Shown here: in pieces, positions 39,101 to 63,200 of the stretch
How positions within the stretch are numbered: position 1 is the stretch's first letter
Layout of the letters: every line of letters begins with the position of its first letter
From: Candidatus Heimdallarchaeum aukensis
GTDB taxonomy: Archaea > Asgardarchaeota > Heimdallarchaeia > Heimdallarchaeales > Heimdallarchaeaceae
Length of the DNA: 64,000 nucleotides
NCBI GenBank assembly: GCA_021513695.1
Contig: CP084166.1
Coordinates: 64,001-128,000, forward strand
Reading direction: 5' to 3'
Made by a program: the position numbers and the translations under genes
Notes under the pieces: model-generated
Told to the model about the DNA's origin: nothing
Database searches by the model: none
Seen by the model: the letters and a program-made list of their open reading frames with translations, nothing else

Positions 39101-40462
39101 AAAAACTTTCCACTATTCCTTAACTTAACAATTATAGGGGCATTGTTTACTCTAATAGGAGCTTTACCACTTTTGATGAAACTTCTATCTATTGTTTGGA
39201 AAGGAATAGGAACAGTAATTTGGAATTCAGAAAAGAAAAACAAGTTCAGGTTCGTATTTGCTGAGATATCTAAAGATATAAGATATTTCGAAAATATTAC
39301 TCTAATATTCTTGTTACTTATTGGTATTATCATTCCTTCTATAATTGTTCCATTTTCCAAAGAGAGAACGCTTACTAATCAAGCTTATTTCATGAACGGA
39401 TCAGAGTTAATGGTTCCAAATTGGCACAAATATTCAAACGGAATAACATTAGAAAATATCAGTGCAATTGAAGGAGTAGAATCAGCTTCTTATGTAAGAC
39501 TATATACGATGTACAGTGACTATAATTTAGGATATCATGGAACAAAAATAATGGTCATAAACACAACGAGTTTTATGGAAACCGTCCGGCAACCTCCTAC
39601 AACAGTTACAAAGTTCAATTGGCAACAGTTGGGTTCTCTTACTAAAGATACTGTTATAATTAGTAGAACTTTATCTGAAAAGTATAAAAAAGAAGTAGGA
39701 GATGAGATTTTTCTTATTCATCCTGATGCAACTTTTGATCCAAGATATGACAAATTTGTTCATAAATACAATCATACTATGACAGTAATATCAACATTTG
39801 ATCTCTTCCCGATTTTCTTCCTAGAAAAAGATAAACAAGAAGAAGAGCTAATGATGATTGTAACAGCTGAATGCTTTGACACGATATTGAAAAACGTAGT
39901 TACTAGACGATTACTCACTTCTTCGGCATTGTTGATTAAACCAACTAGTAAAGATGATATAGATCAAGTTGCTCAACAAGTATTTGATATTTCAGGAGGA
40001 GCTTATGTTCAAAGTTTCAGTAGTTTGAAGGATAACCTCAAAACTCCTCTCTATAATATTTTTGTTATTGAAATGATTCTTTCATTGTTCATTGCTGTTG
40101 TAGTTTTAATATTTTCAAGCTTTACCACAGCAACAAAGATATTAGAAAAGAGAGTAATCAAGCACGATATAATGAAGAAAATGGGAATAAATGTTACGAC
40201 AATAATCAACCTATCAGCTATAGAAAGTTTTATAGCTGCAATAATACCTTCCATGCTTCTGGGTTCGTTATTTGGATTTTTAGTGATAAATCCGATGTTG
40301 GGCCTTCTAAGTTATGGAGCAGAACCTTATCCTCTTACCATGCAGTATCCATTAATTCCGTTATTACTGAGTTTCTTGGCTTTACCTGTTATACTGTATA
40401 TTAGTTTGACATTTAATTTGCGTAGAGAATTTGCCAATTATTCTCCTACACAATTGGAGTGA
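36164..40462 (+). CDS. Giant (1432 aa) MacB/FtsX-type ABC transporter permease. It has an N-terminal ~430-aa extracytoplasmic domain and two FtsX 4-TM modules, each with a large extracytoplasmic domain.
   Basis: The signal/TM segment is LIIIVLVVLSFNSLILG. TM clusters lie around aa 435-455, 515-535, 800-900, 950-1010 and 1340-1420, with soluble domains of about 250-300 aa between them. It sits upstream of an ABC ATPase. The start is TTG (36164); an ATG at 36158 is in another frame and terminates after 26 codons. Confidence 0.7.
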   Translation: MPILIRLKLRSSFLIIIVLVVLSFNSLILGENESEYTLLYTENIDDGGIIETFPVIDMNQNIHVFVHLRTSVEDKLIVLYNDGSKLIQSNLLEDVSVITFYDSFIYDDQLFVIFSAVNPLGTISFYEYSWSPSSNKTIPIVSIASSVLPYINYFKVTIDNGTTHLFFNKFYGDKNEFMNITHYYGRSGSFKKEYFSITNPYYRVGLDFVVNNGTIYYFYQKWEDEYNKGEFTGDFGFGILDNQTFYPQVTKIFSKKIVGKVGKFDAEKGINDKIFTFAFFEQKKMYYGWFNGTHVLNMTQNLLTQDNYYDFSLNTENDTEQMFLITRPEGFDYVSVFRGTYNNLTLLWEFQPITTLEKISPYGYSFTLFDSSYLLLYNSTVSTKEIPHPIGLQYKNETAVSLILVTNLPISPIEPIIDNGLQLYNPITYFIKNNIPIVIALSVLLLIVIALLTVLWIRKAKTIKAFLYDTSEVGEHKKFILFFLNLNRYISNFFSTVKTIGFSNKKRTLITLAGFIITGYLLASAIIISQSEQSSLVKSYYNANNIISDGKASVSLITNIVRINEGSATIAKNYDALAKSQISSILSDLTLSKYITSIESVYYSFVRAQHPTVDFNKEVKISAFPDDSEPYLSSVITEGRAPQADNEILIQGSLFRDFDLTLNDNITIVLSQKAVLSNEIQDYQVNLTIVGIFEQVTTSELYKTSLFLGESNDIFGLLETSQIVLYNTNFFELLSNSNKINMQLRGIYQFNLDFSNFRIEERTLISKEYERLVGLTYSFSHDSASAVAFTQEIIEFFENFNSYYLNNMTRLFIFAFPAILLSIFMIFESSELFSSSYQQEVSVLKNRGIRRRRMVSIYIWIRLFEVILATIISYGIAILTSIPLIRVNGFLTFNNRDTELRIGNLPVEMLLTALILFTISIPRILLIVRRERRIEKTPSKLSKLFKRISWREVSFLLIGMLIFGVFYYLTFVAYIEASTKNFPLFLNLTIIGALFTLIGALPLLMKLLSIVWKGIGTVIWNSEKKNKFRFVFAEISKDIRYFENITLIFLLLIGIIIPSIIVPFSKERTLTNQAYFMNGSELMVPNWHKYSNGITLENISAIEGVESASYVRLYTMYSDYNLGYHGTKIMVINTTSFMETVRQPPTTVTKFNWQQLGSLTKDTVIISRTLSEKYKKEVGDEIFLIHPDATFDPRYDKFVHKYNHTMTVISTFDLFPIFFLEKDKQEEELMMIVTAECFDTILKNVVTRRLLTSSALLIKPTSKDDIDQVAQQVFDISGGAYVQSFSSLKDNLKTPLYNIFVIEMILSLFIAVVVLIFSSFTTATKILEKRVIKHDIMKKMGINVTTIINLSAIESFIAAIIPSMLLGSLFGFLVINPMLGLLSYGAEPYPLTMQYPLIPLLLSFLALPVILYISLTFNLRREFANYSPTQLE

Positions 40463-41340
40463 TGTAAATGAGTGGAATATATGTTAAAGATTTAATAAAA
40501 GTGTATCATGACCCAGAAACAGATGTAAGGGTCTCTGCTTTACGTGGGTTAGATCTATTTGTAAAAGAAGGGGAAGTTGCTTCAATAATAGGTCCATCGG
40601 GTGCAGGAAAAAGTACACTAATCAAAATTCTATGTGGTTTAGAAACAGCTTCTGGAGGATCAGTTTATATAGGTGATACAAATATAATTGAACTTTCAGA
40701 AAAGGAGATGCAAACGTTTAGATTCAAAAATATTGGTATAATAAACCAATTTGTTGCCCAGAATTTATTACCTAATTTAACTGTAGAGCAGAACATCCTT
40801 TTACCACTAAAAATGAGATATGCTAGTAAACAAAGAGCAAGAAAAGAACTAGAGGAATTGTTATCTGCTTTAAATATAGAAAGGATACGTTATAATCCTG
40901 TAACCAAAATCTCAGGAGGAGAAGCAGTAAGAACAAGCATTGGAGTTACACTAGCTAAAAAACCTAAAATCATACTCGCGGACGAACCTACAGGACAATT
41001 GGACACTGCTAACACAAACAATATTATTGAAACTTTTAAAGAACTGAATGAAGCTTTCAACACTACTATTCTAGTTGTGACACATGACTTGAGGTTTAGA
41101 AACGCTTTCAATAAAAGCTATATTATTCGTGATGGGAGACTAGTTGGTGTAAATGTTGAAATGGACCGTTCTGAACTTGATTTTCTTATTAAACCTCAAG
41201 AGTCTTCTCTCCAATCTGTAATTGACAGCAGCCAATTCGTAAGATTACCTGATGAAGTATACCAAACTGGAGAATTCAAGCATATTGTTGAATTTGATAT
41301 TCATCCTTCAAAGAAATTTTCAATTTTATTCAATCCTAAC
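37531..41340 (+). repeat. Copy A of a perfect 3810-bp tandem direct duplication.
   Basis: 37531-41340 is identical to 41341-45150. The embedded six-frame ORFs are identical in both copies (e.g. 38782..39000 = 42592..42810, and 39064..39360 = 42874..43170). The length is 3 x 1270, so the duplication is in-frame. Confidence 0.9.
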
Positions 41341-41364
41341 GATAAGAAAAGCAAAAACCATTAA
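40468..41364 (+). pseudogene. Duplication-generated truncated ABC ATPase copy. It contains NBD1 only and gains a chimeric 7-aa tail after the junction.
   Basis: The first 291 codons are identical to the 44278 ATPase. After the junction at 41341 the frame reads DKKSKNH and stops. Confidence 0.5.
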
Positions 41365-44272
41365 AGCCTTCCTTTATGACACTTCAGAGGTTGGAGAACA
41401 TAAAAAGTTCATATTATTTTTCTTGAATTTAAACAGATACATATCTAACTTCTTTAGTACAGTAAAAACAATTGGTTTTTCGAATAAAAAGCGAACGTTA
41501 ATTACTCTTGCAGGTTTTATAATCACAGGATATCTCCTTGCTTCTGCTATCATTATTTCTCAAAGTGAGCAATCCTCCTTAGTTAAGTCTTACTACAATG
41601 CAAATAATATTATTTCAGATGGAAAAGCAAGTGTAAGTCTAATAACAAATATAGTTAGAATCAATGAAGGTTCAGCTACAATTGCTAAAAATTATGATGC
41701 TCTTGCTAAATCACAAATTAGTTCAATACTTAGCGATCTCACACTTTCCAAATATATAACTTCTATAGAATCAGTTTATTATAGTTTTGTCCGTGCTCAA
41801 CATCCTACTGTAGATTTTAACAAAGAAGTTAAGATATCTGCTTTTCCTGATGATTCTGAACCTTACCTTTCTTCTGTTATAACAGAAGGTCGTGCTCCAC
41901 AAGCTGATAATGAAATTTTAATCCAAGGATCACTCTTTAGAGATTTTGATTTAACTCTTAATGACAATATTACTATAGTTCTTTCTCAAAAAGCTGTTTT
42001 ATCTAATGAAATTCAGGATTATCAAGTGAATCTTACAATAGTAGGAATCTTTGAACAAGTAACAACTTCAGAACTTTATAAAACTAGTCTATTTCTTGGT
42101 GAATCAAATGACATTTTTGGTTTGCTCGAAACTTCTCAAATAGTCTTATACAATACCAACTTCTTTGAACTTCTTTCAAACAGTAATAAAATAAACATGC
42201 AACTTAGAGGAATCTATCAGTTTAATTTAGACTTTTCAAACTTCAGGATTGAAGAACGTACATTAATATCAAAAGAATATGAAAGACTTGTAGGACTTAC
42301 TTATTCATTTAGTCATGATAGTGCTTCTGCAGTAGCATTCACACAGGAGATAATAGAGTTCTTTGAGAACTTCAATAGCTACTACTTGAATAACATGACT
42401 CGTTTGTTTATCTTTGCATTTCCAGCAATTCTACTGTCAATCTTTATGATCTTTGAATCTTCAGAACTCTTTTCTTCAAGTTATCAGCAAGAAGTTTCTG
42501 TACTTAAAAATAGAGGTATTAGAAGAAGAAGGATGGTCTCGATTTATATTTGGATCAGACTATTTGAAGTTATATTGGCTACAATTATAAGTTACGGAAT
42601 TGCCATTCTTACTTCGATTCCTTTAATTAGAGTAAATGGTTTCCTAACTTTCAATAATAGAGATACAGAACTAAGAATAGGAAATCTTCCTGTTGAAATG
42701 CTTTTAACTGCTCTAATTCTATTTACTATTTCGATTCCAAGAATTCTTTTGATTGTAAGAAGAGAAAGAAGGATTGAAAAAACACCTAGTAAACTTTCAA
42801 AACTATTCAAAAGAATCAGCTGGAGAGAAGTAAGTTTTCTACTTATAGGTATGCTGATTTTTGGAGTATTCTACTATTTGACCTTTGTAGCATATATTGA
42901 AGCAAGTACGAAAAACTTTCCACTATTCCTTAACTTAACAATTATAGGGGCATTGTTTACTCTAATAGGAGCTTTACCACTTTTGATGAAACTTCTATCT
43001 ATTGTTTGGAAAGGAATAGGAACAGTAATTTGGAATTCAGAAAAGAAAAACAAGTTCAGGTTCGTATTTGCTGAGATATCTAAAGATATAAGATATTTCG
43101 AAAATATTACTCTAATATTCTTGTTACTTATTGGTATTATCATTCCTTCTATAATTGTTCCATTTTCCAAAGAGAGAACGCTTACTAATCAAGCTTATTT
43201 CATGAACGGATCAGAGTTAATGGTTCCAAATTGGCACAAATATTCAAACGGAATAACATTAGAAAATATCAGTGCAATTGAAGGAGTAGAATCAGCTTCT
43301 TATGTAAGACTATATACGATGTACAGTGACTATAATTTAGGATATCATGGAACAAAAATAATGGTCATAAACACAACGAGTTTTATGGAAACCGTCCGGC
43401 AACCTCCTACAACAGTTACAAAGTTCAATTGGCAACAGTTGGGTTCTCTTACTAAAGATACTGTTATAATTAGTAGAACTTTATCTGAAAAGTATAAAAA
43501 AGAAGTAGGAGATGAGATTTTTCTTATTCATCCTGATGCAACTTTTGATCCAAGATATGACAAATTTGTTCATAAATACAATCATACTATGACAGTAATA
43601 TCAACATTTGATCTCTTCCCGATTTTCTTCCTAGAAAAAGATAAACAAGAAGAAGAGCTAATGATGATTGTAACAGCTGAATGCTTTGACACGATATTGA
43701 AAAACGTAGTTACTAGACGATTACTCACTTCTTCGGCATTGTTGATTAAACCAACTAGTAAAGATGATATAGATCAAGTTGCTCAACAAGTATTTGATAT
43801 TTCAGGAGGAGCTTATGTTCAAAGTTTCAGTAGTTTGAAGGATAACCTCAAAACTCCTCTCTATAATATTTTTGTTATTGAAATGATTCTTTCATTGTTC
43901 ATTGCTGTTGTAGTTTTAATATTTTCAAGCTTTACCACAGCAACAAAGATATTAGAAAAGAGAGTAATCAAGCACGATATAATGAAGAAAATGGGAATAA
44001 ATGTTACGACAATAATCAACCTATCAGCTATAGAAAGTTTTATAGCTGCAATAATACCTTCCATGCTTCTGGGTTCGTTATTTGGATTTTTAGTGATAAA
44101 TCCGATGTTGGGCCTTCTAAGTTATGGAGCAGAACCTTATCCTCTTACCATGCAGTATCCATTAATTCCGTTATTACTGAGTTTCTTGGCTTTACCTGTT
44201 ATACTGTATATTAGTTTGACATTTAATTTGCGTAGAGAATTTGCCAATTATTCTCCTACACAATTGGAGTGA
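41341..44272 (+). pseudogene. 5'-truncated second copy of the FtsX permease (equivalent to residues ~457-1432). It has no start codon of its own.
   Basis: From the junction to the stop, the sequence is identical to the C-terminal 976 aa of the 36164 ORF. The track ORF at 41252 begins with an out-of-frame ATG inside the truncated ATPase copy. Confidence 0.5.
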
Positions 44273-45150
44273 TGTAAATGAGTGGAATATATGTTAAAGA
44301 TTTAATAAAAGTGTATCATGACCCAGAAACAGATGTAAGGGTCTCTGCTTTACGTGGGTTAGATCTATTTGTAAAAGAAGGGGAAGTTGCTTCAATAATA
44401 GGTCCATCGGGTGCAGGAAAAAGTACACTAATCAAAATTCTATGTGGTTTAGAAACAGCTTCTGGAGGATCAGTTTATATAGGTGATACAAATATAATTG
44501 AACTTTCAGAAAAGGAGATGCAAACGTTTAGATTCAAAAATATTGGTATAATAAACCAATTTGTTGCCCAGAATTTATTACCTAATTTAACTGTAGAGCA
44601 GAACATCCTTTTACCACTAAAAATGAGATATGCTAGTAAACAAAGAGCAAGAAAAGAACTAGAGGAATTGTTATCTGCTTTAAATATAGAAAGGATACGT
44701 TATAATCCTGTAACCAAAATCTCAGGAGGAGAAGCAGTAAGAACAAGCATTGGAGTTACACTAGCTAAAAAACCTAAAATCATACTCGCGGACGAACCTA
44801 CAGGACAATTGGACACTGCTAACACAAACAATATTATTGAAACTTTTAAAGAACTGAATGAAGCTTTCAACACTACTATTCTAGTTGTGACACATGACTT
44901 GAGGTTTAGAAACGCTTTCAATAAAAGCTATATTATTCGTGATGGGAGACTAGTTGGTGTAAATGTTGAAATGGACCGTTCTGAACTTGATTTTCTTATT
45001 AAACCTCAAGAGTCTTCTCTCCAATCTGTAATTGACAGCAGCCAATTCGTAAGATTACCTGATGAAGTATACCAAACTGGAGAATTCAAGCATATTGTTG
45101 AATTTGATATTCATCCTTCAAAGAAATTTTCAATTTTATTCAATCCTAAC
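41341..45150 (+). repeat. Copy B of the 3810-bp tandem direct duplication.
   Basis: The junction is caatcctaac|gataagaaaagc at 41340/41341. The right end is caatcctaac|aacgttacaaag at 45150/45151. Confidence 0.9.
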
Positions 45151-46065
45151 AACGTTACAAAGAAAGAAATTTACGAAATTTTACCTAAAACACATGAATA
45201 CTCTGATATTGAAGAAAAGATTGAAGCAGAAGCAGAAGATCACAAAGTTTCATTTGACGAAGTAAGACCCATAATGGAGCAAGAATTTCTAGCAGATTTA
45301 TCTGACAGAAATATTATTGAAGTAAAAAACCTTGTAAAATCTTTTCCATTAGGCAAACGTACCCATGAAGTTCTAAAAGGAATAAGTTTCAACATTCGAA
45401 AAGGTGATTTTGTAGTTATTGCTGGAAAAAGTGGAGCAGGAAAAACTACTCTTATGAATGTTGTTTCTGGAGTCGAAAAACCCACTTCAGGTGAAATTAT
45501 CATCGATGGCATAAACATCACAGAAGAAAGCGGTTCAACAATATCAAACATGCGTTTCAAGGATATTGCCATGATTAGTCAAGTCAACAATCTATTCAGT
45601 CAATATACAGTAAAAGAAAATATGGAGATTCCCGAGATTTTCAACGGAATTAAAGACTTTTATTCACACATTGACTTTCAAGAGATAGCAGAAGAATGTA
45701 AAATTGATCATAGACTAAACCAGTATCCTCCAGAACTTTCAGCAGGAGAAAAACAACGTGCTGCGCTAGCTGTAGCTCTCTCTAGACATACCCCAATAAT
45801 CTTTGCAGATGAACCTACAGCCAATTTAGATTCAAGGTTAGCGAGAAATATTATCTCAATGCTCATGGAGACTGCAAGAGTTTACAACACCACAATTGTA
45901 ATGAGTACTCACGATTTGTCTCTAGTAAGACCTGGATTCAGATTAATAAGATTGCAAGATGGAAAAATAATTGAAGATGTAAGAGTTACAAAGAACAAGC
46001 TTAAAGGAATTTTGGAAGACTATTTAGATATTAAAATAGAAGAAAACGGTTCAGTTAGCTATTAA
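44278..46065 (+). CDS. ABC transporter ATP-binding protein with two nucleotide-binding domains (595 aa), the partner of the FtsX/MacB-type permease.
   Basis: NBD1 has Walker A GPSGAGKST, signature ISGGEAVRTS and Walker B IILADEPTGQLD. NBD2 has Walker A GKSGAGKTT, signature LSAGEKQRAALAVAL and Walker B IIFADEPTANLD. Confidence 0.85.
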   Translation: MSGIYVKDLIKVYHDPETDVRVSALRGLDLFVKEGEVASIIGPSGAGKSTLIKILCGLETASGGSVYIGDTNIIELSEKEMQTFRFKNIGIINQFVAQNLLPNLTVEQNILLPLKMRYASKQRARKELEELLSALNIERIRYNPVTKISGGEAVRTSIGVTLAKKPKIILADEPTGQLDTANTNNIIETFKELNEAFNTTILVVTHDLRFRNAFNKSYIIRDGRLVGVNVEMDRSELDFLIKPQESSLQSVIDSSQFVRLPDEVYQTGEFKHIVEFDIHPSKKFSILFNPNNVTKKEIYEILPKTHEYSDIEEKIEAEAEDHKVSFDEVRPIMEQEFLADLSDRNIIEVKNLVKSFPLGKRTHEVLKGISFNIRKGDFVVIAGKSGAGKTTLMNVVSGVEKPTSGEIIIDGINITEESGSTISNMRFKDIAMISQVNNLFSQYTVKENMEIPEIFNGIKDFYSHIDFQEIAEECKIDHRLNQYPPELSAGEKQRAALAVALSRHTPIIFADEPTANLDSRLARNIISMLMETARVYNTTIVMSTHDLSLVRPGFRLIRLQDGKIIEDVRVTKNKLKGILEDYLDIKIEENGSVSY

Positions 46066-50940: not shown

Positions 50941-53900
50941 ATGAAAAAAATGAATAAAATTAAAAAAAATGTTATCTTTCCAGAACCAGTCTCTACTATT
51001 AAAATCAGACCATTGCAAAAAACAGAAAAAGATTACAAAGAAATAGCTCGATGCTTTAATTCTTTCAATGACTCGGATTCTTGGCCTGATGGATTTGGTG
51101 GTTCATTTGTTTTTACTGAAGAGTGGGCAGAGAATGAATATTCGTTAAAAGATCTTTCTTCTCACTTTGTTGCTTTAACAAAAGATGAAGATCAAAAAAT
51201 TGTAGGAGTATGTTATTGTAATAGAAGTTCTCATTTAAAAGATGCGTGGTATGTAGCTCTTTTAGGAGTAGATCCAGCTTTTCAAGGTAAAAAAATTGGT
51301 AAATCATTATTGCTTAATGCTACTAGATTTGCTTTGGAAAAACAAGCAAGATTAATTTCACTTCATACATGGGGAGGAAATTTGAAAGCTATGCCTCTTT
51401 ATAAACGACAAGGATACAAGTGGAGACCAGATACAGTAGTTTACATGGAAAATTATATTCCCCAAATTCTTAATTTTCCTCTCTTTACACCAATATTTAA
51501 GCAAATATCTTGGTACGATAGTTTTAAACCTCATATTACCCAAGAACAAGATAAAGAATTTATTGAAAAAATGAAAATATATGAATATAAATTCCAAAAT
51601 GAAAAAGATGATTTCGAATTAACCACGTGGATTGACAGAACAATTGGATACATTAGTGGTTTCCATTTAAAACATGAGAAAGAAGATATTTCTATAAAAG
51701 CTTATACTCCTAAATCTGAAGCTTTTATAGGAGTAGAAAAATTTCCTGTTTTCTTAGAGATTTCTAATAATACAGATAAAGAAAAAACTCTTAATATTTT
51801 TCTAATTAGCTCTTCATCAATTAAAATAGATGAATCAAAGACAGACGAACAAATCAAAATAAAACCAAATACAAAGATAAAATTGTCTTTTAAAGGTTCA
51901 TTTCTTCCATCTACTCCTGAATTTGATGATAAGAGATTCAAACAATCTCTAGTAGAACATTACGTTTCTTTTAAAATTCAATACAATGAAACTGAATTTC
52001 ATCTGTATGTCGGTAAGATTCCTAAATCACCTGTAAAAGTTGAGATTTCACCATATTACTTAAATGTTTTACCTAGTTCAAAGACCTCTATTCCTTTTAG
52101 TATCAGTAATTTTACAGGAGAAAAGCAAAATTGGACACTAAAAATTAAAAATGGAAATTATGTCTCTTTTCTCTCTAATACTATAGAAACAGAAGTTTCG
52201 ATATATGACAACTTGGTTGAAGTAGATGCAGAAGTAGAAAATACTTCCACCACAGTAGACTATATTCAAGCTAAAATCTATTCCAACGAGATCAACAAAG
52301 AGATTGGCTCATTTGATTTACCTATATTGATAGTTAATAAAGATAAAGCCATTCACTATAAGATAAACCAATTCCACTATATCGAAAATAAGTATGTTAG
52401 AGTAAAGTTCGATGAAACTCCTTTAAGTAGTAATATGATTTATATAGATGATAAAAAGAGAAAACTCAAAATAATGGGGAATTCAATCGTCTTAGGATTA
52501 CCATTTGACAATGAAGGTTCAGAGTTTTACACAAAAAAACTTAACCACGAAATAAAAGAGTTGGAAGATGGAATATTATTTATAAGTACGTGTCTTTCTG
52601 AAAACAAAAAGGGTATAAAAGTTGTAAGAAAACTCTTTATTCCACATGATGCATCTCCATTGAAGATTAGTTATGAGCTAGAAAATACCACAGATAACAA
52701 AATAGAGAACATGGGTGTTCATTATGGATATTGGTGGTGGTCTGGACATCAACCACAAAAATATAAGATAATTCCATTGAAAGAAGGAATTTACTACTCT
52801 AATCTATTCGAACTATCGCTTGAATTAGGAAAAGATCCTTCAAAACTAAAAGAAGGTTGGGTTGCTTGTAAATACGATAATGGTTTTGCAGGTTTTCTCT
52901 TTAATTTAGAAAAAACAGACAAAGTATATTTAGATAGCACACTTCCACATGTAGATTATATTCTCCCATTTATTGAGCCAAAAACTAAAATTGAGCTTCC
53001 AGCTGTATATTTCTATTTTGCTGATGACTGGAAGAGTGTAAGAGAAAAATGGTCTGAACTCTATTTAGGTAAATATTTAGTCGATGAAGAAGACGAACAA
53101 CCTTCACCAATGAGGATTTATGGTATTTCATTAGGAAAAGAAGCATCAATTGTTGATGGGTTATTTATTGAAAAAAATAACTCTAAATTCTACTTTAATT
53201 TTGACGCCTTTCTACCTACTGAGTTTAAAGGGAAAATTCTATTCAAAGAAGGTAAAATTTATCCCAATGAAATAAAACTAGAAGGCAAGAAGATTGCTAG
53301 GTTCTCACAAGATCTAAAAATTGACGTTCTTGATACCCTTGAAACTTTAAAAGAAAAATTAATTCTAGATACAGGCTCATATATTGATGAAAAAGATATT
53401 GCTCTATGTTTCTACAGCAACGAAAAACCAATTAAAAAAGAGATTAACGAAGAAAAAAACAAATATATCCAAGTTTCTAATGGATTGGTTACATTTCGTG
53501 CAAGTCATAACTTCAATGGTGTTGCTTACTTTCTATCCTATAAAGACCAGAAAAATATATTCAAAACTTTTTGGCCAGAGAGTCCACCCTTTCTATGGGA
53601 TAACCGCTTTTTTGGAGGAATTGCTCCGCACATTGTACAATATAACAGTTGGGATTTCCAAGATTATTTGGATCTAAAATTTGAACTATTACCTGATGTT
53701 CGAAAGGGAAAACTTGAAGGAGTAGGAATGAAAAGTGAGATAATAACTTATTCTCCTTATCTTAAAGGCTTGCAAGTTACTAATTACTATTTGACACTAC
53801 CTGCTTCACCTTTTCTTTTAGTACAACAGCAAATTTACAACCATTCAGGTGTTTCTAGATACTTTAATCCAGTGATAAGTATAAACCTCGAACCATCAGG

Positions 53901-54255
53901 AACAACAGAAGATAAATACTACATTGATAATGGTGAGACTTATTTAACCTTTAGAACTCAAGATTTCGAAAGCGACGCTTGGAAACGCAAGAAAGGAAAA
54001 ACAAGATGGGTTGCTTATAAAAATAGAGATGCTCCCTATTATTTAGGTGTTGTAATCAACTCTAAGAAATTTGGATATACTGTAGAACCTTACATACCTA
54101 ATTTAAACATTTCAAAAATAATTGTGCAATCTCCTATAGCGAAAATAAAACCTAAAGAAACGCTTACTTTTGAAACAATGATAATATTTACTGATGAACT
54201 TGAAAAAATCAAACCATTTACCAATAATAATATTAGAGAATTAATTGAAGAATAA
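50941..54255 (+). CDS. Large (1104 aa) protein: an N-terminal GNAT acetyltransferase domain fused to a ~930-aa domain of unknown function.
   Basis: The GNAT motif is YVALLGVDPAFQGKKIGKSLLLNATRFALE. The remainder is beta-rich with no recognised motifs. Confidence 0.55.
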   Translation: MKKMNKIKKNVIFPEPVSTIKIRPLQKTEKDYKEIARCFNSFNDSDSWPDGFGGSFVFTEEWAENEYSLKDLSSHFVALTKDEDQKIVGVCYCNRSSHLKDAWYVALLGVDPAFQGKKIGKSLLLNATRFALEKQARLISLHTWGGNLKAMPLYKRQGYKWRPDTVVYMENYIPQILNFPLFTPIFKQISWYDSFKPHITQEQDKEFIEKMKIYEYKFQNEKDDFELTTWIDRTIGYISGFHLKHEKEDISIKAYTPKSEAFIGVEKFPVFLEISNNTDKEKTLNIFLISSSSIKIDESKTDEQIKIKPNTKIKLSFKGSFLPSTPEFDDKRFKQSLVEHYVSFKIQYNETEFHLYVGKIPKSPVKVEISPYYLNVLPSSKTSIPFSISNFTGEKQNWTLKIKNGNYVSFLSNTIETEVSIYDNLVEVDAEVENTSTTVDYIQAKIYSNEINKEIGSFDLPILIVNKDKAIHYKINQFHYIENKYVRVKFDETPLSSNMIYIDDKKRKLKIMGNSIVLGLPFDNEGSEFYTKKLNHEIKELEDGILFISTCLSENKKGIKVVRKLFIPHDASPLKISYELENTTDNKIENMGVHYGYWWWSGHQPQKYKIIPLKEGIYYSNLFELSLELGKDPSKLKEGWVACKYDNGFAGFLFNLEKTDKVYLDSTLPHVDYILPFIEPKTKIELPAVYFYFADDWKSVREKWSELYLGKYLVDEEDEQPSPMRIYGISLGKEASIVDGLFIEKNNSKFYFNFDAFLPTEFKGKILFKEGKIYPNEIKLEGKKIARFSQDLKIDVLDTLETLKEKLILDTGSYIDEKDIALCFYSNEKPIKKEINEEKNKYIQVSNGLVTFRASHNFNGVAYFLSYKDQKNIFKTFWPESPPFLWDNRFFGGIAPHIVQYNSWDFQDYLDLKFELLPDVRKGKLEGVGMKSEIITYSPYLKGLQVTNYYLTLPASPFLLVQQQIYNHSGVSRYFNPVISINLEPSGTTEDKYYIDNGETYLTFRTQDFESDAWKRKKGKTRWVAYKNRDAPYYLGVVINSKKFGYTVEPYIPNLNISKIIVQSPIAKIKPKETLTFETMIIFTDELEKIKPFTNNNIRELIEE

Positions 54256-54285: not shown

Positions 54286-56304
54286 TTATTTATTAAATCC
54301 TGTATACTCCAGAATCTCTTTGATATTCTTTTCATAAAATTGTGGTTTTACTGGTGCTCTCGGTATTTCTTTTATTCTTTCAGCAAGAGAAAGTGTCCAA
54401 ATTCTTATTTCTGAACTCATTTCAGAAGCAATAACAGCAATAATTCCGTTTTTTATGGCTTGCAAACTAATTGTAAAGTCTTCATAGAAAACATCCTTTA
54501 ATCTACGAATTTCTTTATCTCCAGTGATACTTTCTGCAAGTTGATTAATGGCCATTAGTAATCCCGAAAGTAAAATGTCATTAGCCTTCAGCTTTTCTTT
54601 TAGGTTAGAATAAACAGGGACTCCACTTTCGCTAATGACAAGTACTCCTAAAATCTCTGTCTCATGGTTTTTTGAACTTTCGACTTTAAGTGATAGAAGA
54701 GACTTGAATTGAGGAAGAATATAGTCGATTACATTTTGTTTTTTTATTTGTAATGTACCTGTTTTTTCAGAAAGACGGATATTTTTTTCTACTTCATCTA
54801 TATCTTTCTTAAGCGCATCTAGTTCTATTTCTTCACCTATCTTTCTGGCTTCTAGCAATAAATTAAACGCTGTCTCTGTATCTCCGTCTATCGCAACCAA
54901 AACCGCATTCACAAGATAACTTACTGCTAAGAGCTGATTATGCTTATATTCTACAGCTAATTGTTTGACTGTTTCACAATAGTTAAGTGCTAAATTAAGG
55001 TTTTCTTGAGTTTCAAGTAGTCTATAATATATTAAATAAGCTACAGCTAACTGAATGTTAGAATAGAGTATCAATTCTGTATCGTTAATGAGAGAAGCGT
55101 TTTCAAGTGCTGAATGAAGAAAGGAAATTGCACTAGTTAAGTTGTGTTGAAGCATTTCTAAGAACCCTCTGAGATAATCAACTCTAATATTAATCGAAGG
55201 AACTTCAAGTTCTCTCGCTAGACTTTTTAGTTCTTTTAAATATCTCTTAGCTTCTGCTATTTTTTCCACTCTTAAATAGTAATGAACTAGTTCAAATAAA
55301 ATGAATGCTTTGTGCATCGATTTTTCATTTTTCTGTATTTCATATGCAGCCAAAAATGATTCTTCAGCTCTATTATCTCCCAAAAGAAAATAGAGATTTC
55401 CAATTTCAGTGAGATAAAGATAAGGCCATTTTCCTGTGCTCTTTTTGTAAAGATTTATAGCTTTTTCCATCATATCTTTAGCTTTTTTTATTTTTCCTTC
55501 AACTGCTAATACTTCTGCTAAATTTCCAGTTGCGATAGATAATCTATAGTTATCATTGAATTGGCTATGGATTTCAATGAGTTTCTCAAAACATTCTATA
55601 GCTTCTTTAGTTTTACCAAAATAACTGTAAATGCTTCCTTTTACATTTAGGAATGTTGTTTTGCTTTTATAGGATCCATACCTTTCTATATAAGGGCTGA
55701 TAAATGAAAACTCCTTTTCATAATTTATATCTACCCCAGCGTGAAGTAACCACCATATAATATTATGAAACGCTTCGTGAAGATGGTGGTGTTCAATTAT
55801 TTCTTCTGACTTTGTTATTCTCTCTTTAACTATTTTTAAAATAGGTTTAATTTTATCTATTTCACCTTGTTGTCCATGAACCCATGATTGTATGTTGTAA
55901 ATTGCTGCTTGTATCTCGTTTGTTATCTTTTTCTTTTTTCGAATCTCTTTTTCTTGAGCATCAATTTCTCTTACTATCTTTGAATAATTTTGGGGGTTCT
56001 CTTGAAAATAGAGACTAAATAAGGAAACAAAAGGGTCATCAACTTTTTCGAGTGTTTTGATAAGCTCTTCTGTAGCCCGCATTTTTTGGGTCAGATAGCA
56101 GGTAAGTGTAGCTAAAGTAACTATTTGCTGGTTGTTTGAAGGGATAGTTTTCTCTTTTTCCAAAAGAATTTTCAATGCAGAAAAAGATCCTCTTTGAAGT
56201 TTCTCATTAGGATTAGGTGAACTCTGCTTTTTTACTTCATTTACAACAAGTTCTCTACTTTCTTCATCTAACCTTTTGAGCATTTCTTCGTATATTAATT
56301 GCAT
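54286..56304 (-). CDS. TPR-repeat protein (672 aa) with a C-terminal roadblock/LC7-like domain.
   Basis: The central region has TPR-like helical repeats (e.g. AIECFEKLIEIHSQFNDNYRLSIATGNLAEVLAVEGKIKKAKDMMEKAINLYKK). The C-terminus ILGVLVISESGVPVYSNL...DILLSGLLMAINQLAESI...DFTISLQAIKNGIIAVIASE follows a roadblock-like pattern. Confidence 0.5.
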   Translation of the reverse strand: MQLIYEEMLKRLDEESRELVVNEVKKQSSPNPNEKLQRGSFSALKILLEKEKTIPSNNQQIVTLATLTCYLTQKMRATEELIKTLEKVDDPFVSLFSLYFQENPQNYSKIVREIDAQEKEIRKKKKITNEIQAAIYNIQSWVHGQQGEIDKIKPILKIVKERITKSEEIIEHHHLHEAFHNIIWWLLHAGVDINYEKEFSFISPYIERYGSYKSKTTFLNVKGSIYSYFGKTKEAIECFEKLIEIHSQFNDNYRLSIATGNLAEVLAVEGKIKKAKDMMEKAINLYKKSTGKWPYLYLTEIGNLYFLLGDNRAEESFLAAYEIQKNEKSMHKAFILFELVHYYLRVEKIAEAKRYLKELKSLARELEVPSINIRVDYLRGFLEMLQHNLTSAISFLHSALENASLINDTELILYSNIQLAVAYLIYYRLLETQENLNLALNYCETVKQLAVEYKHNQLLAVSYLVNAVLVAIDGDTETAFNLLLEARKIGEEIELDALKKDIDEVEKNIRLSEKTGTLQIKKQNVIDYILPQFKSLLSLKVESSKNHETEILGVLVISESGVPVYSNLKEKLKANDILLSGLLMAINQLAESITGDKEIRRLKDVFYEDFTISLQAIKNGIIAVIASEMSSEIRIWTLSLAERIKEIPRAPVKPQFYEKNIKEILEYTGFNK

Positions 56305-58381: not shown

Positions 58382-59290
58382 TTAACTTCTTATCTTTTCT
58401 TTCCCTAAATAAGTTTCACAACCTTCAGTTGTTCTAGCTAAAGCAAGAAGTTTAGGTATTTTTTCAGGAATAAAGACCAGTTTACATTTAATTATTTTTC
58501 CTATGCTTTTCTCAAAATTTTGAACTGTAACTTCTTCCTCAAAAGTAAGTTTCTTGATTCTATAAAAAATCACTTTTTTAGGAGAAATTTGCTCTAAATC
58601 CTTATTAGAAACAGATAGTTCTTTTATATCTCTTATAATTAAAGGAAAAGTTCTAGTTTCTCGCTCAATAATTCGTATGTATTCAAATATTTCAAAGGTA
58701 GGAAGATAAAAAGCTAAAGTTTCTGAGAATAGTTCTCCTGTAGTTTTTTCTTCTTCTTTACTTTTAGCCAAAAAAGCATCATATACTTCTTTAGATACCT
58801 TTCTAATTGTTATATCTTTAAGTTTTTCAGGATCAGACGGGTAGATGTAACTCCCTTTTTTAATTACAAGACCTAGTTCAACAAGTTTAGGAACATCTCC
58901 CTTGAATTTAACATTATTACATTTTCTAATAGCATGAATAGTTTCAGATAATAATTTCCCGTCAACATCTTCACTAAAAATAAGATTGTTTATTCTTGTA
59001 AAGAAAAAGGTTTTCTTTCCTTTAAGTACTTCTAAGTCTTTTCTTGTTATTGTTAGTTCTTCTATATCTGAAATAACTTCAGGTCTTTCATGTCTTTTTA
59101 TTGGGTGAAATCGTTTTCGCGCTAATCTAAAAGGAGAAATGTTCTGATCTATGAATCCTGCAAAGAGAATGTTAAATAGTTGTCCTGTTGTTAGACCTTC
59201 TTTTTTTGCATAAGTTGAAAATTGATCATATAATTCTGAGTCTACATTTCTTATTGTAACATCTTTTAATTCTTTTTCACTGATTTCCAT
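58382..59290 (-). CDS. Internally duplicated protein: two copies of (ribbon-helix-helix-like module + ~100-aa unknown domain). It is a putative transcription regulator.
   Basis: Half 1 (LKDVTIRNVDSELYDQFSTYAKKEGLTTGQLFNILFAGF ... ITRKDLEVLKGKKTFFFTRINNLIFSEDV) aligns with half 2 (LKDITIRKVSKEVYDAFLAKSKEEEKTTGELFSETLAFY ... VSNKDLEQISPKKVIFYRIKKLTFEEEV). The RHH assignment is inferred from the beta-alpha-alpha pattern. Confidence 0.4.
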   Translation of the reverse strand: MEISEKELKDVTIRNVDSELYDQFSTYAKKEGLTTGQLFNILFAGFIDQNISPFRLARKRFHPIKRHERPEVISDIEELTITRKDLEVLKGKKTFFFTRINNLIFSEDVDGKLLSETIHAIRKCNNVKFKGDVPKLVELGLVIKKGSYIYPSDPEKLKDITIRKVSKEVYDAFLAKSKEEEKTTGELFSETLAFYLPTFEIFEYIRIIERETRTFPLIIRDIKELSVSNKDLEQISPKKVIFYRIKKLTFEEEVTVQNFEKSIGKIIKCKLVFIPEKIPKLLALARTTEGCETYLGKEKIRS

Positions 59291-59305
59291 GTTATCATAT
59301 GAGTG

Positions 59306-59322
59306 GTATGATTTGTATGATA
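59306..59322. promoter_or_regulatory. Paired direct repeat GTATGATTTGTATGATA, the promoter-proximal site for the 58382-59290 gene.
   Basis: Two GTATGAT heptamers sit 9 nt apart, start to start. The same arrangement recurs at 59410-59426. Confidence 0.35.
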
Positions 59323-59409
59323 TAAATATTTCTATTGTTTTTAAAGTCTCATAACAACTCCAATATATCTATGTATTATGGATAAAGAAATATTTAAAAA
59401 GTATAACTT

Positions 59410-59426
59410 GTATGATGTGTATGATA
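59410..59426. promoter_or_regulatory. Paired direct repeat GTATGATGTGTATGATA, upstream of the ABC exporter operon.
   Basis: This is the second copy of the GTATGAT-N2-GTATGATA element, about 20-35 nt upstream of the ATG at 59446. Confidence 0.35.
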
Positions 59427-59445
59427 AGGTGTAAGGGTATTTAAT

Positions 59446-61284
59446 ATGTTTGTAAAAAAAACGAAATCAGTTTATCAAAAATCAATGTACATAGATAAAC
59501 AATCTCTTATAATTGAGAAATATAAAAACGCTAATAAATGGTTCTGGTCTGCACTTTTGCGCTATCCTTTTCATTATTTGATTGGCTTTCTTTTGCTTAT
59601 TGTAAGTACTTATTTAACTGTAAACACAACTGCTCTCATAGGGACAGCTCTGGACTACTTACATGAAGAAGGTTTTTCAACTAATTTTAATAAAACTATT
59701 ACTTTAATGCTTATTTTTGTTCTTTTCAGCTGGATTGCTCAATCTTTGAGTGTTTATGTCTGGGCAATAGCTTCTTTCAGAATTCAGAGAGATATGCGTC
59801 AAGAATTTTATGAAGTCATTCAACAACACTCAATGGCTTTTTTTGATATTAATGATAGTGGAATTATTCTTAGCATGGGTATGAACGAAATAAATAGTAT
59901 TAGACTGGCTTTTAATCCTGCTTTAAGAATGTTATTGAGTTCAGTTGTAGGAATTATTATTTCCATCTTTTTCTTGTGGAGAGCTGATTTTTATATAGGT
60001 ATATCAATCTCTATAGCTTTTATAATATATTTTGTAATTGCTTGGATTTATGCTGGAAAGGTAGGCCCTATAAGGAAAAAGTTAGCAACTGATCTAAGTG
60101 AGCTATCTTCATTAAGTCAAGAGATGTTTAAAGGTATAGATACAGTCAGATCTTTTGATAATGAGGAAAAAGAGATAGCTAAGTTTGAGCACGTAAGTTA
60201 TCGATATGCTGAAGATATGAAAAAAGAAGGATATTTAAGCGCCTTCTATTGGCCTGCACTTATTACTGTTGTTTTTACTGCAGGAGCTTTTGCTTATGGG
60301 TCATGGATGGTAGTTAATAATTATTTTACGATCGGGACATTAATTACGATTCTAGCTTTGTTAATGTCTTTAAATAGACAAAATTTCATGATTCCTGCAA
60401 GGTTAATAATGCTTCAAGGGGGGATACAAAACGCAAAAAGATTGTGGGCTAAAATTTCATTCCAAGACCCATTAATAGAACCTTCAGATCCACTCACCGG
60501 TAATTGGGATAAAGGTATTGAGTTTAGGAATGTTAATTTTGCCTACCCAGGAACAAGTAAGTATTCGCTCCGTGATGTTTCCTTTAAAATACCTGTTGGA
60601 GCTCGTGTTGCCTTAATTGGAGGGCCAGGTTCTGGAAAATCTACTATTCTAAAACTTCTTTTACGTTTATATGATCCCAATGAAGGGGCTATATTTGTTA
60701 ATGGTACTCCTTTAAACCAAATGCACACTAAATATATAAGACAACATGTAACTTTAGTTGAACAAGAAATTTTTCTTTTTTCTGATACCATAAGAGCTAA
60801 TATCTCTTTTTCTAAACCTGATGCGACAGATGAGGAGATAAGAATTGCTGCAGAACGAGCTCAAATTGCTCAATTTATTGAATCTTTACCTCAAAAATAT
60901 GATACTGTTATAGGTGAAAGAGGAGTAACTTTAAGTGGTGGTCAAAGACAAAGAATAGCTATTGCTCGAGCACTACTCTCTAATCCTAAACTTCTGCTTT
61001 TAGATGATAGTACAAGTGCTGTAGATATAAAAACCGAGTTAAGATTACGTTATGCTATGGAAGAACTAATGAAAGGAAGAACAAGTGTAGTCGTTACTCA
61101 AAGATTAACAACTTTAGTGGAAGCTGATATGATTATTTTGATGAAAAAAGGAAAAGTTGTAGACATAGGAACTCATGAAGAGCTCTTAAGTCGTTGTGAA
61201 GAGTACCAGTTTATGTGTAAACATTTACCAATCAACAACGGATTAGAGCCTTCAGTTGCTGAAAGTGTTGGAGGTGGAAGATAA
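59446..61284 (+). CDS. ABC type-I exporter half-transporter (TMD-NBD), the subunit with the degenerate catalytic site.
   Basis: It has six TM helices. Walker A is GGPGSGKST and the signature is LSGGQRQRIAIARAL. Walker B is LLLDDSTSAVD, with Asp replacing the catalytic Glu. Confidence 0.85.
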   Translation: MFVKKTKSVYQKSMYIDKQSLIIEKYKNANKWFWSALLRYPFHYLIGFLLLIVSTYLTVNTTALIGTALDYLHEEGFSTNFNKTITLMLIFVLFSWIAQSLSVYVWAIASFRIQRDMRQEFYEVIQQHSMAFFDINDSGIILSMGMNEINSIRLAFNPALRMLLSSVVGIIISIFFLWRADFYIGISISIAFIIYFVIAWIYAGKVGPIRKKLATDLSELSSLSQEMFKGIDTVRSFDNEEKEIAKFEHVSYRYAEDMKKEGYLSAFYWPALITVVFTAGAFAYGSWMVVNNYFTIGTLITILALLMSLNRQNFMIPARLIMLQGGIQNAKRLWAKISFQDPLIEPSDPLTGNWDKGIEFRNVNFAYPGTSKYSLRDVSFKIPVGARVALIGGPGSGKSTILKLLLRLYDPNEGAIFVNGTPLNQMHTKYIRQHVTLVEQEIFLFSDTIRANISFSKPDATDEEIRIAAERAQIAQFIESLPQKYDTVIGERGVTLSGGQRQRIAIARALLSNPKLLLLDDSTSAVDIKTELRLRYAMEELMKGRTSVVVTQRLTTLVEADMIILMKKGKVVDIGTHEELLSRCEEYQFMCKHLPINNGLEPSVAESVGGGR

Positions 61285-63200
61285 TGGGACATGGAACTCG
61301 AGGACCTGGAAGAGCTCTAGGATTAGAGAAACATAAGCGTGCACGTTCTACTAAAGTTTTATTAGCTAGTTTGTGGAAATACTTGAAAAACTATATCTGG
61401 TCAATTTTCTTTGCTGCTTCTTTAATTATTCTTTATTCTCTATTTTCATTGGTTACTCCTTTAATACTTAAAACGGGCATAGATAAAGTCACAGAAGAAG
61501 ATGCTTCAATGAAAATCTTAATGCCAGTGATTGTCTCTTTCTTTGTATTGGTTATTTTAGGTTGGATAATTAACAGTATATCAACTATTATACTTACTAA
61601 AATAAATTCAAAGATGCTTCATGAAGTAAGAACAGACCTTTACAGAAAATTAAGTTACTCTGACATGTCCTATATCAAAAATGAACAATCAGGAAATATA
61701 ACTGCAAGGGTAACTTCAGATACTGGAGAATTGGCAACAGGGATACAAATATCAACTTCAATAGTTGCGCAGCTATTGTTGATCATAGGTTCTTTTGTCA
61801 TATTACTGGTTACAAATTGGGTAATAGCTTTGATTTCTATAGCTGCTGTCCCTATAGCTTTTGGAATAAGTTCAATTCTGAGTTATTTTGGAAGAAAAAT
61901 AGTTTTAAGAGTGAGAAGAGCTTTTGGCTATGTTTCAGGAAAGATGGCAGAAGGCTTAAGTGGAATTGCAGTAGCAAAATCGTTTAACAGAGAAGAAGAA
62001 CTAGCTACTGAATTGAGAGAATTAAACCAACAACACTATAATTATTCAAAGCAATTCGGATTTCTTATGATGTTTGTTATGCCATCCATTAGTGCATTAA
62101 GCTATGCTCTATTCACCTTGATCATTTATATGAGTGGATGGTTAAATAAAACTACAAATGTCATTAGTCTAGGAGATATTTATTTATCTATTAATTTATC
62201 TCAACAATTTCTCTTTCCGATTGTGATGCTAGCTATGTCTTTTCCTCAATTAGAATCTGCTTTTGGTGCAATGGATAGAATAATAGATATTTTTGATGCC
62301 AAACCTGCTATTTCTGATGCTCCTGATGCAAAATCTCTTCAAGAAGAAGATGATAGTGTACATTTTAAGAATGTAAGCTTTGCTTATAAAGAAGGAAATT
62401 ATGTGTTAAAGAATATCAACTTTTCGGCTAAACCAGGAGAATTAATAGCTGTAGTAGGACATACTGGAGCTGGAAAAACTACTTTGTTTTCCTATTTACT
62501 TCCTCGGTTCTATGATGTGACAGAAGGTGAGATATACATAGGTAACCAAAACATTAAGGAAGTAACACAGTCTTCTTTAAGACAGGCAATAGGCCTTGTT
62601 ACTCAAGAACCATTTCTTTTTTCTGGTACTGTTTATGAAAATATCATTTATGGAAAACCTGATGCTACAGAAGAAGAAGTGCGTAGTATCTGTGAAAGAA
62701 TAAATGCAGACGAATTTATTGAAGCTTTACAACATGGTTACAATACAAAAATAGTAGAAGGAGGAAAGAGACTATCTTCTGGTCAAAAACAAATAATTAC
62801 CATCGCAAGAACAATGTTGGCTAATCCCAGAATACTTGTTTTAGATGAAGCAACAAGCAGGTTAGATGCATATACAGAATCTTTGGTTCAAGCTGCACAA
62901 ATGGAATTATTCAAGGGAAGAACAACTTTTGTAATTGCTCATAGGTTATCAACAATTAAAGATGCTGACAGAATAATTGTACTTGATCATGGAAGGCTTG
63001 TAGAAGTAGGAACACATGAAGAATTAATGGAAAAGAAGGGAATATACCAAGACCTTTATACAACTTATTATGCCTATCAAGGATTAGAAAAAGTAGATAT
63101 TGATATTGAAGAATTGGAGCCTGAAATAGTGGAAAAACCAATAAAACCAAAGAAAAAACCTGCTCAATTCAAGTTAGATTCTAAGAAAAAGAAACCTTGA
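61284..63200 (+). CDS. ABC type-I exporter half-transporter (TMD-NBD), the partner subunit with a canonical Walker B.
   Basis: Walker A is GHTGAGKTT. The signature is LSSGQKQIITIARTM, which is degenerate. Walker B is LVLDEATSRLD. Its start overlaps the upstream stop (ATAATG). Confidence 0.85.
   Translation: MGHGTRGPGRALGLEKHKRARSTKVLLASLWKYLKNYIWSIFFAASLIILYSLFSLVTPLILKTGIDKVTEEDASMKILMPVIVSFFVLVILGWIINSISTIILTKINSKMLHEVRTDLYRKLSYSDMSYIKNEQSGNITARVTSDTGELATGIQISTSIVAQLLLIIGSFVILLVTNWVIALISIAAVPIAFGISSILSYFGRKIVLRVRRAFGYVSGKMAEGLSGIAVAKSFNREEELATELRELNQQHYNYSKQFGFLMMFVMPSISALSYALFTLIIYMSGWLNKTTNVISLGDIYLSINLSQQFLFPIVMLAMSFPQLESAFGAMDRIIDIFDAKPAISDAPDAKSLQEEDDSVHFKNVSFAYKEGNYVLKNINFSAKPGELIAVVGHTGAGKTTLFSYLLPRFYDVTEGEIYIGNQNIKEVTQSSLRQAIGLVTQEPFLFSGTVYENIIYGKPDATEEEVRSICERINADEFIEALQHGYNTKIVEGGKRLSSGQKQIITIARTMLANPRILVLDEATSRLDAYTESLVQAAQMELFKGRTTFVIAHRLSTIKDADRIIVLDHGRLVEVGTHEELMEKKGIYQDLYTTYYAYQGLEKVDIDIEELEPEIVEKPIKPKKKPAQFKLDSKKKKP

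Follow-up and report, generated by a model that had tools for sequence, protein, structure and literature searches.

In the window analysed here, a 64,000-nucleotide stretch of contig CP084166.1 of the archaeon Candidatus Heimdallarchaeum aukensis, a minus-strand gene (58382-59290, with its ATG start at 59290) encodes a 302-residue protein that is probably an autoregulated repressor of its own gene and of a divergent ATP-binding cassette (ABC) exporter operon. The protein is built from two copies of a module, each consisting of a ribbon-helix-helix (RHH) unit and a beta-solenoid-like domain, and both ends of the 155-bp intergenic region that it shares with the exporter (59291-59445) carry direct repeats of the heptad GTATGAT, which lie between TATA-like boxes and start codons. 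A first-pass annotation, made from the letters of the stretch and its open reading frames (ORFs), had read the locus as a duplicated RHH-like regulator with operators for both transcription units. That reading as a whole is borne out by independent comparative and structural evidence, all of it computational.

Putative operators and promoters in the shared intergenic region

The G+C content of the intergenic region is 23%, compared with 32% for the window. The paired GTATGAT direct repeats that had been reported at both of its ends are present as GTATGATTTGTATGATA at 59306-59322 and as GTATGATGTGTATGATA at 59410-59426, the latter ending 19 nt before the exporter ATG. Across the 64 kb, the 16-mer GTATGATNNGTATGAT is matched exactly at two places, both in this intergenic region, where 0.01 would be expected, and none of 100 shuffled sequences reached two; allowing up to two mismatches returns just the same two sites. 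The annotation had raised the possibility that the motif is frequent throughout an AT-rich genome, and in the 64-kb window it is not. The bare heptamer GTATGAT occurs 17 times against 10.2 expected, and four of these copies fall inside the 155-bp region; outside it, the count of 13 does not rise above background.

The repeated stretch can be extended to 25 nt, with 84% identity between its copies at the two ends, and each operator may thus be read as three 9-bp units, the outer one degenerate. The regulator-side operator, O_R (59297-59322, plus strand), reads ATATGAG-TG-GTATGAT-TT-GTATGAT(A), with two perfect heptads and the degenerate unit ATATGAG (59297-59303) at a 9-bp period. The exporter-side operator, O_E (59401-59426, plus strand), reads GTATAAC-TT-GTATGAT-GT-GTATGAT(A), the degenerate outer unit GTATAAC (59401-59407) preceding the two heptads. 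The regulator-side heptads are also flanked by a perfect inverted pair of 7 nt, TATCATA (59293-59299) and TATGATA (59316-59322), so that the third unit of O_R could be an inverted heptad, ATCATAT (59294-59300), and not the direct degenerate one. The description of these repeats as operator half-sites holds in part: the paired repeats are conserved, but their units are heptads with a 9-bp period, each probably the site of one whole pseudo-dimer.

Since the organism is archaeal, TATA boxes, and not -35/-10 elements, are the reference for the sites; bacterial promoter logic was set aside, the homologues being all from Heimdallarchaeia. A TATA-like box of the regulator promoter, TATTTATA (59321-59329, minus strand), adjoins O_R, which occupies the space between this box and the regulator ATG; its TTTATAT is kept in the closest orthologues. 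The TATA-like box of the exporter promoter, TTTAAAAA (59393-59400, plus strand), has O_E directly downstream, and a TTTAAA/TTAAATAT box beside the exporter-side operator is kept in all 14 orthologous loci described below. A Shine-Dalgarno (SD)-like GGTG (59428-59431, plus strand) follows O_E and precedes the exporter ATG at 59446. Archaeal TATA boxes are centred about 26 nt upstream of the transcription start. By this spacing, transcription of the regulator is predicted to start about 8-12 nt before its ATG, and that of the exporter inside the last heptad of O_E, giving a leader of about 22 nt. Archaeal activators usually bind upstream of the transcription factor B recognition element (BRE) and TATA box, whereas repressors sit downstream of the TATA box. 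Both operators would cover the TATA-to-start interval, the place where archaeal repressors block polymerase recruitment.

Across the intergenic region lies the exporter that had been recognised, encoded by two genes. Subunit 1 (59446-61284, plus strand; 612 residues) is a half-transporter with a transmembrane domain and an ATPase domain (PF00664, 6.6e-35; PF00005, 7.3e-34), and subunit 2 (61284-63200, plus strand; 638 residues) is likewise a half-transporter with ABC_membrane and ABC_tran domains (PF00664 and PF00005). Adjacent genes that each fuse an N-terminal ABC_membrane domain, with its six transmembrane helices, to an ABC_tran domain are the arrangement of a type IV/ABCB-like heterodimer, and the overlap of the subunit 2 start with the subunit 1 stop makes a single operon probable. 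The top NCBIfam matches of the pair are generic MsbA/TAP/HepA-like models, all below cut-off, and none of the substrate-specific NCBIfam equivalogs reaches its cut-off (MsbA-related, 349 and 387 bits vs 780).

The pairing of regulator and exporter is conserved. In a synteny set of 14 non-redundant orthologous loci from Heimdallarchaeia, in which regulator identity runs from 97% down to 37%, every two-module orthologue has the orthologues of both ABC genes (52-96% identical) as its divergent neighbours. The other flank of the regulator changes, with a diacylglycerol-kinase-like gene in some loci and unrelated genes in others (L004, L005 and L007).

The operators are conserved as well. When the six closest intergenic regions are aligned, invariant columns cluster in ATCATACnnATCATA at the regulator end and in its counterpart at the exporter end, and the spacer diverges. 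The exporter-side repeat pair stands beside a TATA-like box in 14 of 14 loci, with the consensus TCATACAAATCAtACAtaTTtaaC on the regulator-sense strand and its two heptads abutting the TATA-like box, which is oriented towards the ABC genes. On the regulator side, the pair can be made out in about 11 of the 14, most clearly in the closer orthologues, with the consensus tA.ATcATACAaAtcATaca following an A/T-rich TATA-like sequence. Retention of both pairs amid diverging sequence supports the predicted use of these sites that the annotation had put forward, namely autoregulation together with control of the exporter. In 129 kb of orthologous loci, all matches with at most one mismatch lie in the regulator-ABC intergenic region and share one orientation, and the motif is absent from the remaining ~190 kb examined.

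The distance between the two operators is 104 bp here, or about 10 helical turns, and in orthologues it is 36, 56, 65, 94, 97, 103, 105 or 114 bp. This range makes a fixed loop geometry unlikely, and DNA looping was dropped as a required feature. In locus L007 (3843-3921, on a Logan contig), the second operator copy lies, with a TATA-like box, inside the called ABC ORF. The ABC start there was probably mis-called; an ATG just after the repeat (ATGTACGCAAGT...) would be the true start and would restore the two-operator layout.

The duplicated regulator and its predicted structure

The internal duplication claimed for the 302-residue protein is real: its halves (residues 1-153 and 154-302) align with 39% identity over 135 residues (E 1e-22). 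An AlphaFold2 model of the regulator, built from six sequences, reached a mean predicted local distance difference test (pLDDT) score of 86.6 and a predicted template-modelling (pTM) score of 0.79. The suspected RHH fold appears in this model of the whole protein as two strand-helix-helix units. RHH unit 1 comprises residues 8-46 (59153-59269, minus strand), with a strand, KDVTIRNVD, at residues 8-17 and helices at 18-30 and 35-46 as assigned by DSSP on the model; RHH unit 2 comprises residues 157-212 (58655-58822, minus strand), with a strand, LKDITIRKVS, at residues 157-166 and helices at 167-179 and 184-212. Each is followed by a domain of strands and helices resembling a beta-solenoid or leucine-rich repeat (LRR), folds in which stacked beta-strand rungs recur every ~20-25 residues, at residues ~68-142 (58865-59089, minus strand) and ~216-301 (58388-58645, minus strand). 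The proposed layout of an RHH-like part plus a domain of about 100 residues, present twice, therefore stands for the strand-helix-helix part, while the second domain is shorter, at about 85 residues, and in the model is a beta/alpha repeat domain, probably a small beta-solenoid/LRR-like fold.

Conservation among 11 orthologues follows the predicted reading strands. K9, D10, T12, R14 and V16 are invariant in unit 1, as are K158, D159, I160, T161, I162, R163 and V165 in unit 2, and so are G36 and G185, the conserved glycines of the inter-helix turns. Solenoid-like domain 2 carries a conserved motif, ...C..V..P..IPKL..L.R, that is common to the single-module relatives. The strands of the two units are paired in the model as an antiparallel ribbon, which is the dimeric RHH fold, and the two units of one chain are accordingly modelled as a pseudo-dimer. 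The best matches of the model in the PDB are single-chain double-RHH F TraY, single-chain Arc and the viral protein AvtR, and the model superposes on single-chain RHH proteins across 79-92 residues; in a Foldseek comparison against the PDB, TraY had the top probability, 0.87, and none of the matches had E <= 0.001. As a control, a single-module relative was modelled as a monomer. Its N-terminus was disordered (pLDDT 40-58) and without a strand, its C-terminal domain reached a pLDDT of ~90, and its N-terminal part matched the RHH domains of MazE, KacA, TacA, CopG, FitA and PutA.

Sequence searches place the regulator outside the described families. Its best Pfam match is the FitA-like RHH model PF22513, at residues 11-32, with 16.4 bits against a cut-off of 27 bits, and the RelB/DinJ model of NCBIfam scores 13.9 against 45.65; RHH_1, RHH_3 and RHH_5 recur among relatives, always below threshold. 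None of the curated RHH models in Pfam or NCBIfam is thus matched significantly, and no Pfam model matched the C-terminal, solenoid-like domain of the module in the regulator or the relatives scanned. A phmmer search of the PDB with the whole protein gave chance-level matches only. The sole match of the family profile to PDB sequences, an anti-CRISPR protein (9wa8_A, E 6e-4), was set aside as uninformative, because the alignment spans the RHH unit and linker helix and misses the solenoid-like domain. As judged by sequence, the regulator belongs to none of the curated families. It is likely to be a transcription factor from a so far uncharacterised family of archaea, which joins an RHH unit to a beta-solenoid/LRR-like domain of about 85 residues and in which two such modules have here been fused.

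Relatives of the regulator and further features of the window

A metagenome search with an 11-sequence alignment extended the set of relatives. The first five homologue clusters and the genome matches all carry the names Candidatus Heimdallarchaeaceae, Heimdallarchaeota or Hodarchaeales, and the complete genome of Candidatus Heimdallarchaeum endolithica contains a regulator homologue at 88% identity. An exhaustive profile search returned 226 cluster representatives, about 27 of which are two-module proteins of ~290-300 residues. The remainder are mostly single-module proteins of ~150 residues that match one half of the 302-residue regulator, and those that are named come from Verstraetearchaeota, Lokiarchaeum ossiferum and Heimdallarchaeota. 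Named family members are annotated as hypothetical proteins throughout, literature searches found no paper describing the family, and no other paralogue was found in the 64-kb window.

Distant family genes, among them those of single-module relatives in Lokiarchaeum, Heimdallarchaeota and Verstraetearchaeota, have tandem heptads of diverged sequence, at the same 9-bp period, between TATA box and ATG. Examples are GTATGAC-AT-GTAACAC after the TATA box in L023, GTATAAC-AA-GTAACAC in L024 and GTTACAT-GT-GTTACAT-GC-GTGATAT in L027, both of these between TATA box and ATG, and GTAATAC-AT-GTAGTAC immediately 5' of the ATG in L033. In Lokiarchaeum (L034), five GTA-initiated units begin at 3947, 3957, 3966, 3975 and 3984, between the TATA box and the SD sequence, and a paralogue (L011) has GTTTAACAA twice between TATA box and ATG. 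In 14 hand-picked segments running from TATA box to ATG, bases match at lag 9 with a mean frequency of 0.51, compared with 0.22-0.34 at other lags from 4 to 14. Such arrays are the pattern expected if family members autoregulate through one-dimer sites. Many of the distant heptads approximate the palindrome GTA-N-TAC, whereas the heptad of the Heimdall two-module proteins, GTA-T-GAT, is asymmetric and has a fixed orientation; it may fit an asymmetric, fused reading head.

Several loci show other arrangements of family genes. In a Heimdallarchaeota metagenome-assembled genome (MAG; JADCLS010000015, L033:3547-5058), three family genes are consecutive, a pair of single-module genes separated by 2 bp being followed by a 204-residue paralogue with an N-terminal extension, and more repeats of 9-bp period, CATACATGT-TATACATGT-AATACAG, lie upstream of the TATA box. 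The adjacent genes plausibly represent an unfused precursor state of the two-module protein. In Lokiarchaeum ossiferum (L034:4001-8468), a single-module family gene and a 197-residue paralogue head a co-directional cluster that also includes two ABC exporter genes, a pair 30-39% identical to that of the window. Being in culture, L. ossiferum may offer the easiest experimental access to the family. The two-module paralogue of MAG_147 (L011:5280-5320), which is 30% identical, is divergent from a CopD-like membrane protein and not from an ABC pair. The repeat GTTTAACAA-GTTTAACAA upstream of it keeps the 9-bp architecture with a different heptad, which suggests a separate specificity. A more tentative proposal is that these proteins form a previously undescribed family of one-component regulators in Asgard and TACK archaea. 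Single modules would act as homo- or heterodimers on palindromic heptads of the GTA-N-TAC kind at the 9-bp period, the Heimdall fusion of two tandem genes would have created an asymmetric single-chain head that co-evolved with an asymmetric heptad, GTA-T-GAT, in one orientation, and the solenoids would sense the exporter substrate and release repression.

Elsewhere in the window, a 672-residue protein resembling tetratricopeptide repeat (TPR)/MalT proteins (54286-56304, minus strand) and a 1104-residue protein (50941-54255, plus strand), orthologues of which begin with a GNAT acetyltransferase domain at the N-terminus, are close to the regulator gene, as they are in L001. Their placement differs in L004 and L005, and they are probably unrelated to the regulator. 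A tandem direct duplication of ~3.85 kb (37514-41358 and 41324-45168; 99.5% identical, offset 3810 bp) spans large ORFs at 36164-40462, 40468-41364, 41252-44272 and 44278-46065 and could be either a recent real event or an assembly artefact.

Proposed mechanism, alternatives and known systems

In the mechanism proposed for this locus, the two RHH units would pair within one chain through strands 8-17 and 157-166, forming in the model one complete two-stranded ribbon that could read DNA, with the invariant pairs T12/R14 and T161/R163 as the likely base-contacting residues. One chain would occupy each GTATGAT heptad, and two or three chains would lie side by side on heptads 9 bp apart; we infer DNA binding, repression and cooperativity. 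One operator separates the TATA-like box of the regulator gene from its start codon, a second has the corresponding position in the exporter operon, and by archaeal promoter logic their occupancy would keep RNA polymerase from being recruited to, or initiating at, either promoter. More speculatively, the solenoid domains may provide contacts between neighbouring chains or sense an inducer, possibly the exporter substrate.

Several observations weigh against this account or parts of it. The regulator-side operator is degenerate in L009/L013 and in L018, and autoregulation may therefore not be universal among orthologues. Both reading strands have the same T-x-R residues, which alone do not explain an asymmetric heptad. 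The segments behind the lag-9 signal were chosen by hand, as noted, and no such signal was seen in the single-module subgroup L028-L030. Finally, a monomer prediction can pair strands only within a chain, and the RHH units might instead pair between chains. In that arrangement, RHH1 would pair with RHH2' or RHH1' of a second chain, and a dimer with two reading heads would cover both adjacent heptads of the same operators. RHH domains usually dimerise between molecules, two strong heptads are present in each operator, and the L033 family members, encoded by adjacent separate genes, must pair between chains. The arrangement is nevertheless rather unlikely, since both strands form a single, confidently predicted ribbon in the model, the pTM of which applies to the whole arrangement and which superposes on single-chain RHH proteins, and since the fused modules of TraY and AvtR give monomeric binders.

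The remaining alternatives concern what the protein does at these sites, or whether it acts there at all. It is improbable that the regulator activates the exporter or acts dually, for instance as an activator while occupancy is low and as a repressor once it is high, as AvtR activates and represses according to concentration (PMC5569661). Each operator does lie upstream of the opposite promoter, but at distances varying among orthologues, which speaks against a fixed upstream activating geometry, and each operator immediately follows the TATA-like box of its own promoter and extends as far as the start codon or close to it, the position of a repressor. The link between protein and sites is purely one of association, and the repeats might instead be bound by another factor or be core promoter elements, with the two-module protein having another target or a function outside transcription. 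There is little to recommend this reading, given that the same 9-bp architecture, with diverged sequence, accompanies family genes in distant lineages and different contexts, the pattern of co-occurrence expected of autoregulated factors co-evolving with their sites, and that the motif is missing from the other sequence examined. The weak matches to antitoxin RHH models (FitA, RelB/DinJ and VapB) and the resemblance of the heptad arrays to the parS site of omega call to mind an antitoxin of a toxin-antitoxin pair or a centromere-binding partition protein of the omega/ParG type, with centromere-like repeats. This is hardly credible for the present locus: no toxin-like neighbour of the regulator was found in the window or the 14 orthologous loci, none of the 14 has an adjacent ParA gene, and the constant neighbour is the ABC exporter pair. 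The loci are also chromosomal, including that of a complete genome (CP084167), and just two or three heptads make up each site, inside a promoter.

If the repressor reading is correct, the locus is a compact regulator-operator pair, in which one protein serves two 26-bp operators and two promoters. It defines a protein family that has no Pfam model and in which an RHH head is joined to a new partner domain. The separate, adjacent and fused genes of this family would offer a natural example of how a covalent pseudo-dimer able to read an asymmetric site may originate. Asgard archaea are the closest prokaryotic relatives of eukaryotes, and to our knowledge gene regulation in them is almost unstudied. 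In practical terms, the operator motif could serve for regulon prediction in Heimdallarchaeia, and the locus is a candidate inducible promoter system.

Among known systems, AvtR of Acidianus filamentous virus 6 (gp29; PDB 4hv0) and F-plasmid TraY (PDB 9f0x/9f0y) resemble the regulator in having two RHH motifs in one chain. The monomeric AvtR represses the gene that encodes it and carries both its RHH motifs in that single chain (PMC5569661). It differs in being viral and ~100 residues long, with a short linker between its RHH motifs and no extra domains, whereas the regulator has a solenoid-like domain of about 85 residues for each RHH; moreover, the AvtR site is an imperfect inverted repeat, the putative sites here are direct heptads, and AvtR has no significant sequence similarity to the family profile (E 0.14). 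TraY is a monomer containing a whole RHH dimer (PMC12117103), but it is a bacterial relaxosome accessory protein that acts at oriT rather than a promoter repressor, lacks solenoid domains and shows no relationship in sequence (12% identity). The ~100-residue insert between the RHH motifs of the regulator has no counterpart in either protein.

The operators recall those of the omega repressor (ParB) of pSM19035, in which an RHH unit reads a short repeat, and of MetJ, in which RHH proteins bind side by side on short tandem repeats, the 8-bp metboxes. The reading strand of omega uses Thr29/Arg31, and that of the regulator carries T-x-R. Omega binds as one dimer per 7-bp WATCACW repeat, with cooperativity between two dimers (PMC9499535); this repeat resembles the heptads ATCATAC/ATCACAC here. 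Omega and MetJ, however, are non-covalent homodimers on contiguous repeats with a period of 7 or 8 bp, against 9 bp at this locus, omega also binds a centromere with 7-10 repeats, and no homology of the regulator to either was detected. The proposed layout of the locus is that of bacterial multidrug export systems such as LmrR with LmrCD, in which an autoregulated repressor is divergent from a heterodimeric ABC half-transporter pair. Repressors of that type are winged-helix proteins (PadR, TetR or MarR) whose drug-binding pockets are known, whereas the DNA-binding fold here is RHH and ligand binding is hypothetical. RHH repressors, single-chain RHH proteins and divergent repressor-exporter pairs are thus already known, and no new principle is involved; what is new is the duplication of a whole module of RHH and solenoid-like domain, the heptad arrays with a 9-bp period and the lineage in which they occur.

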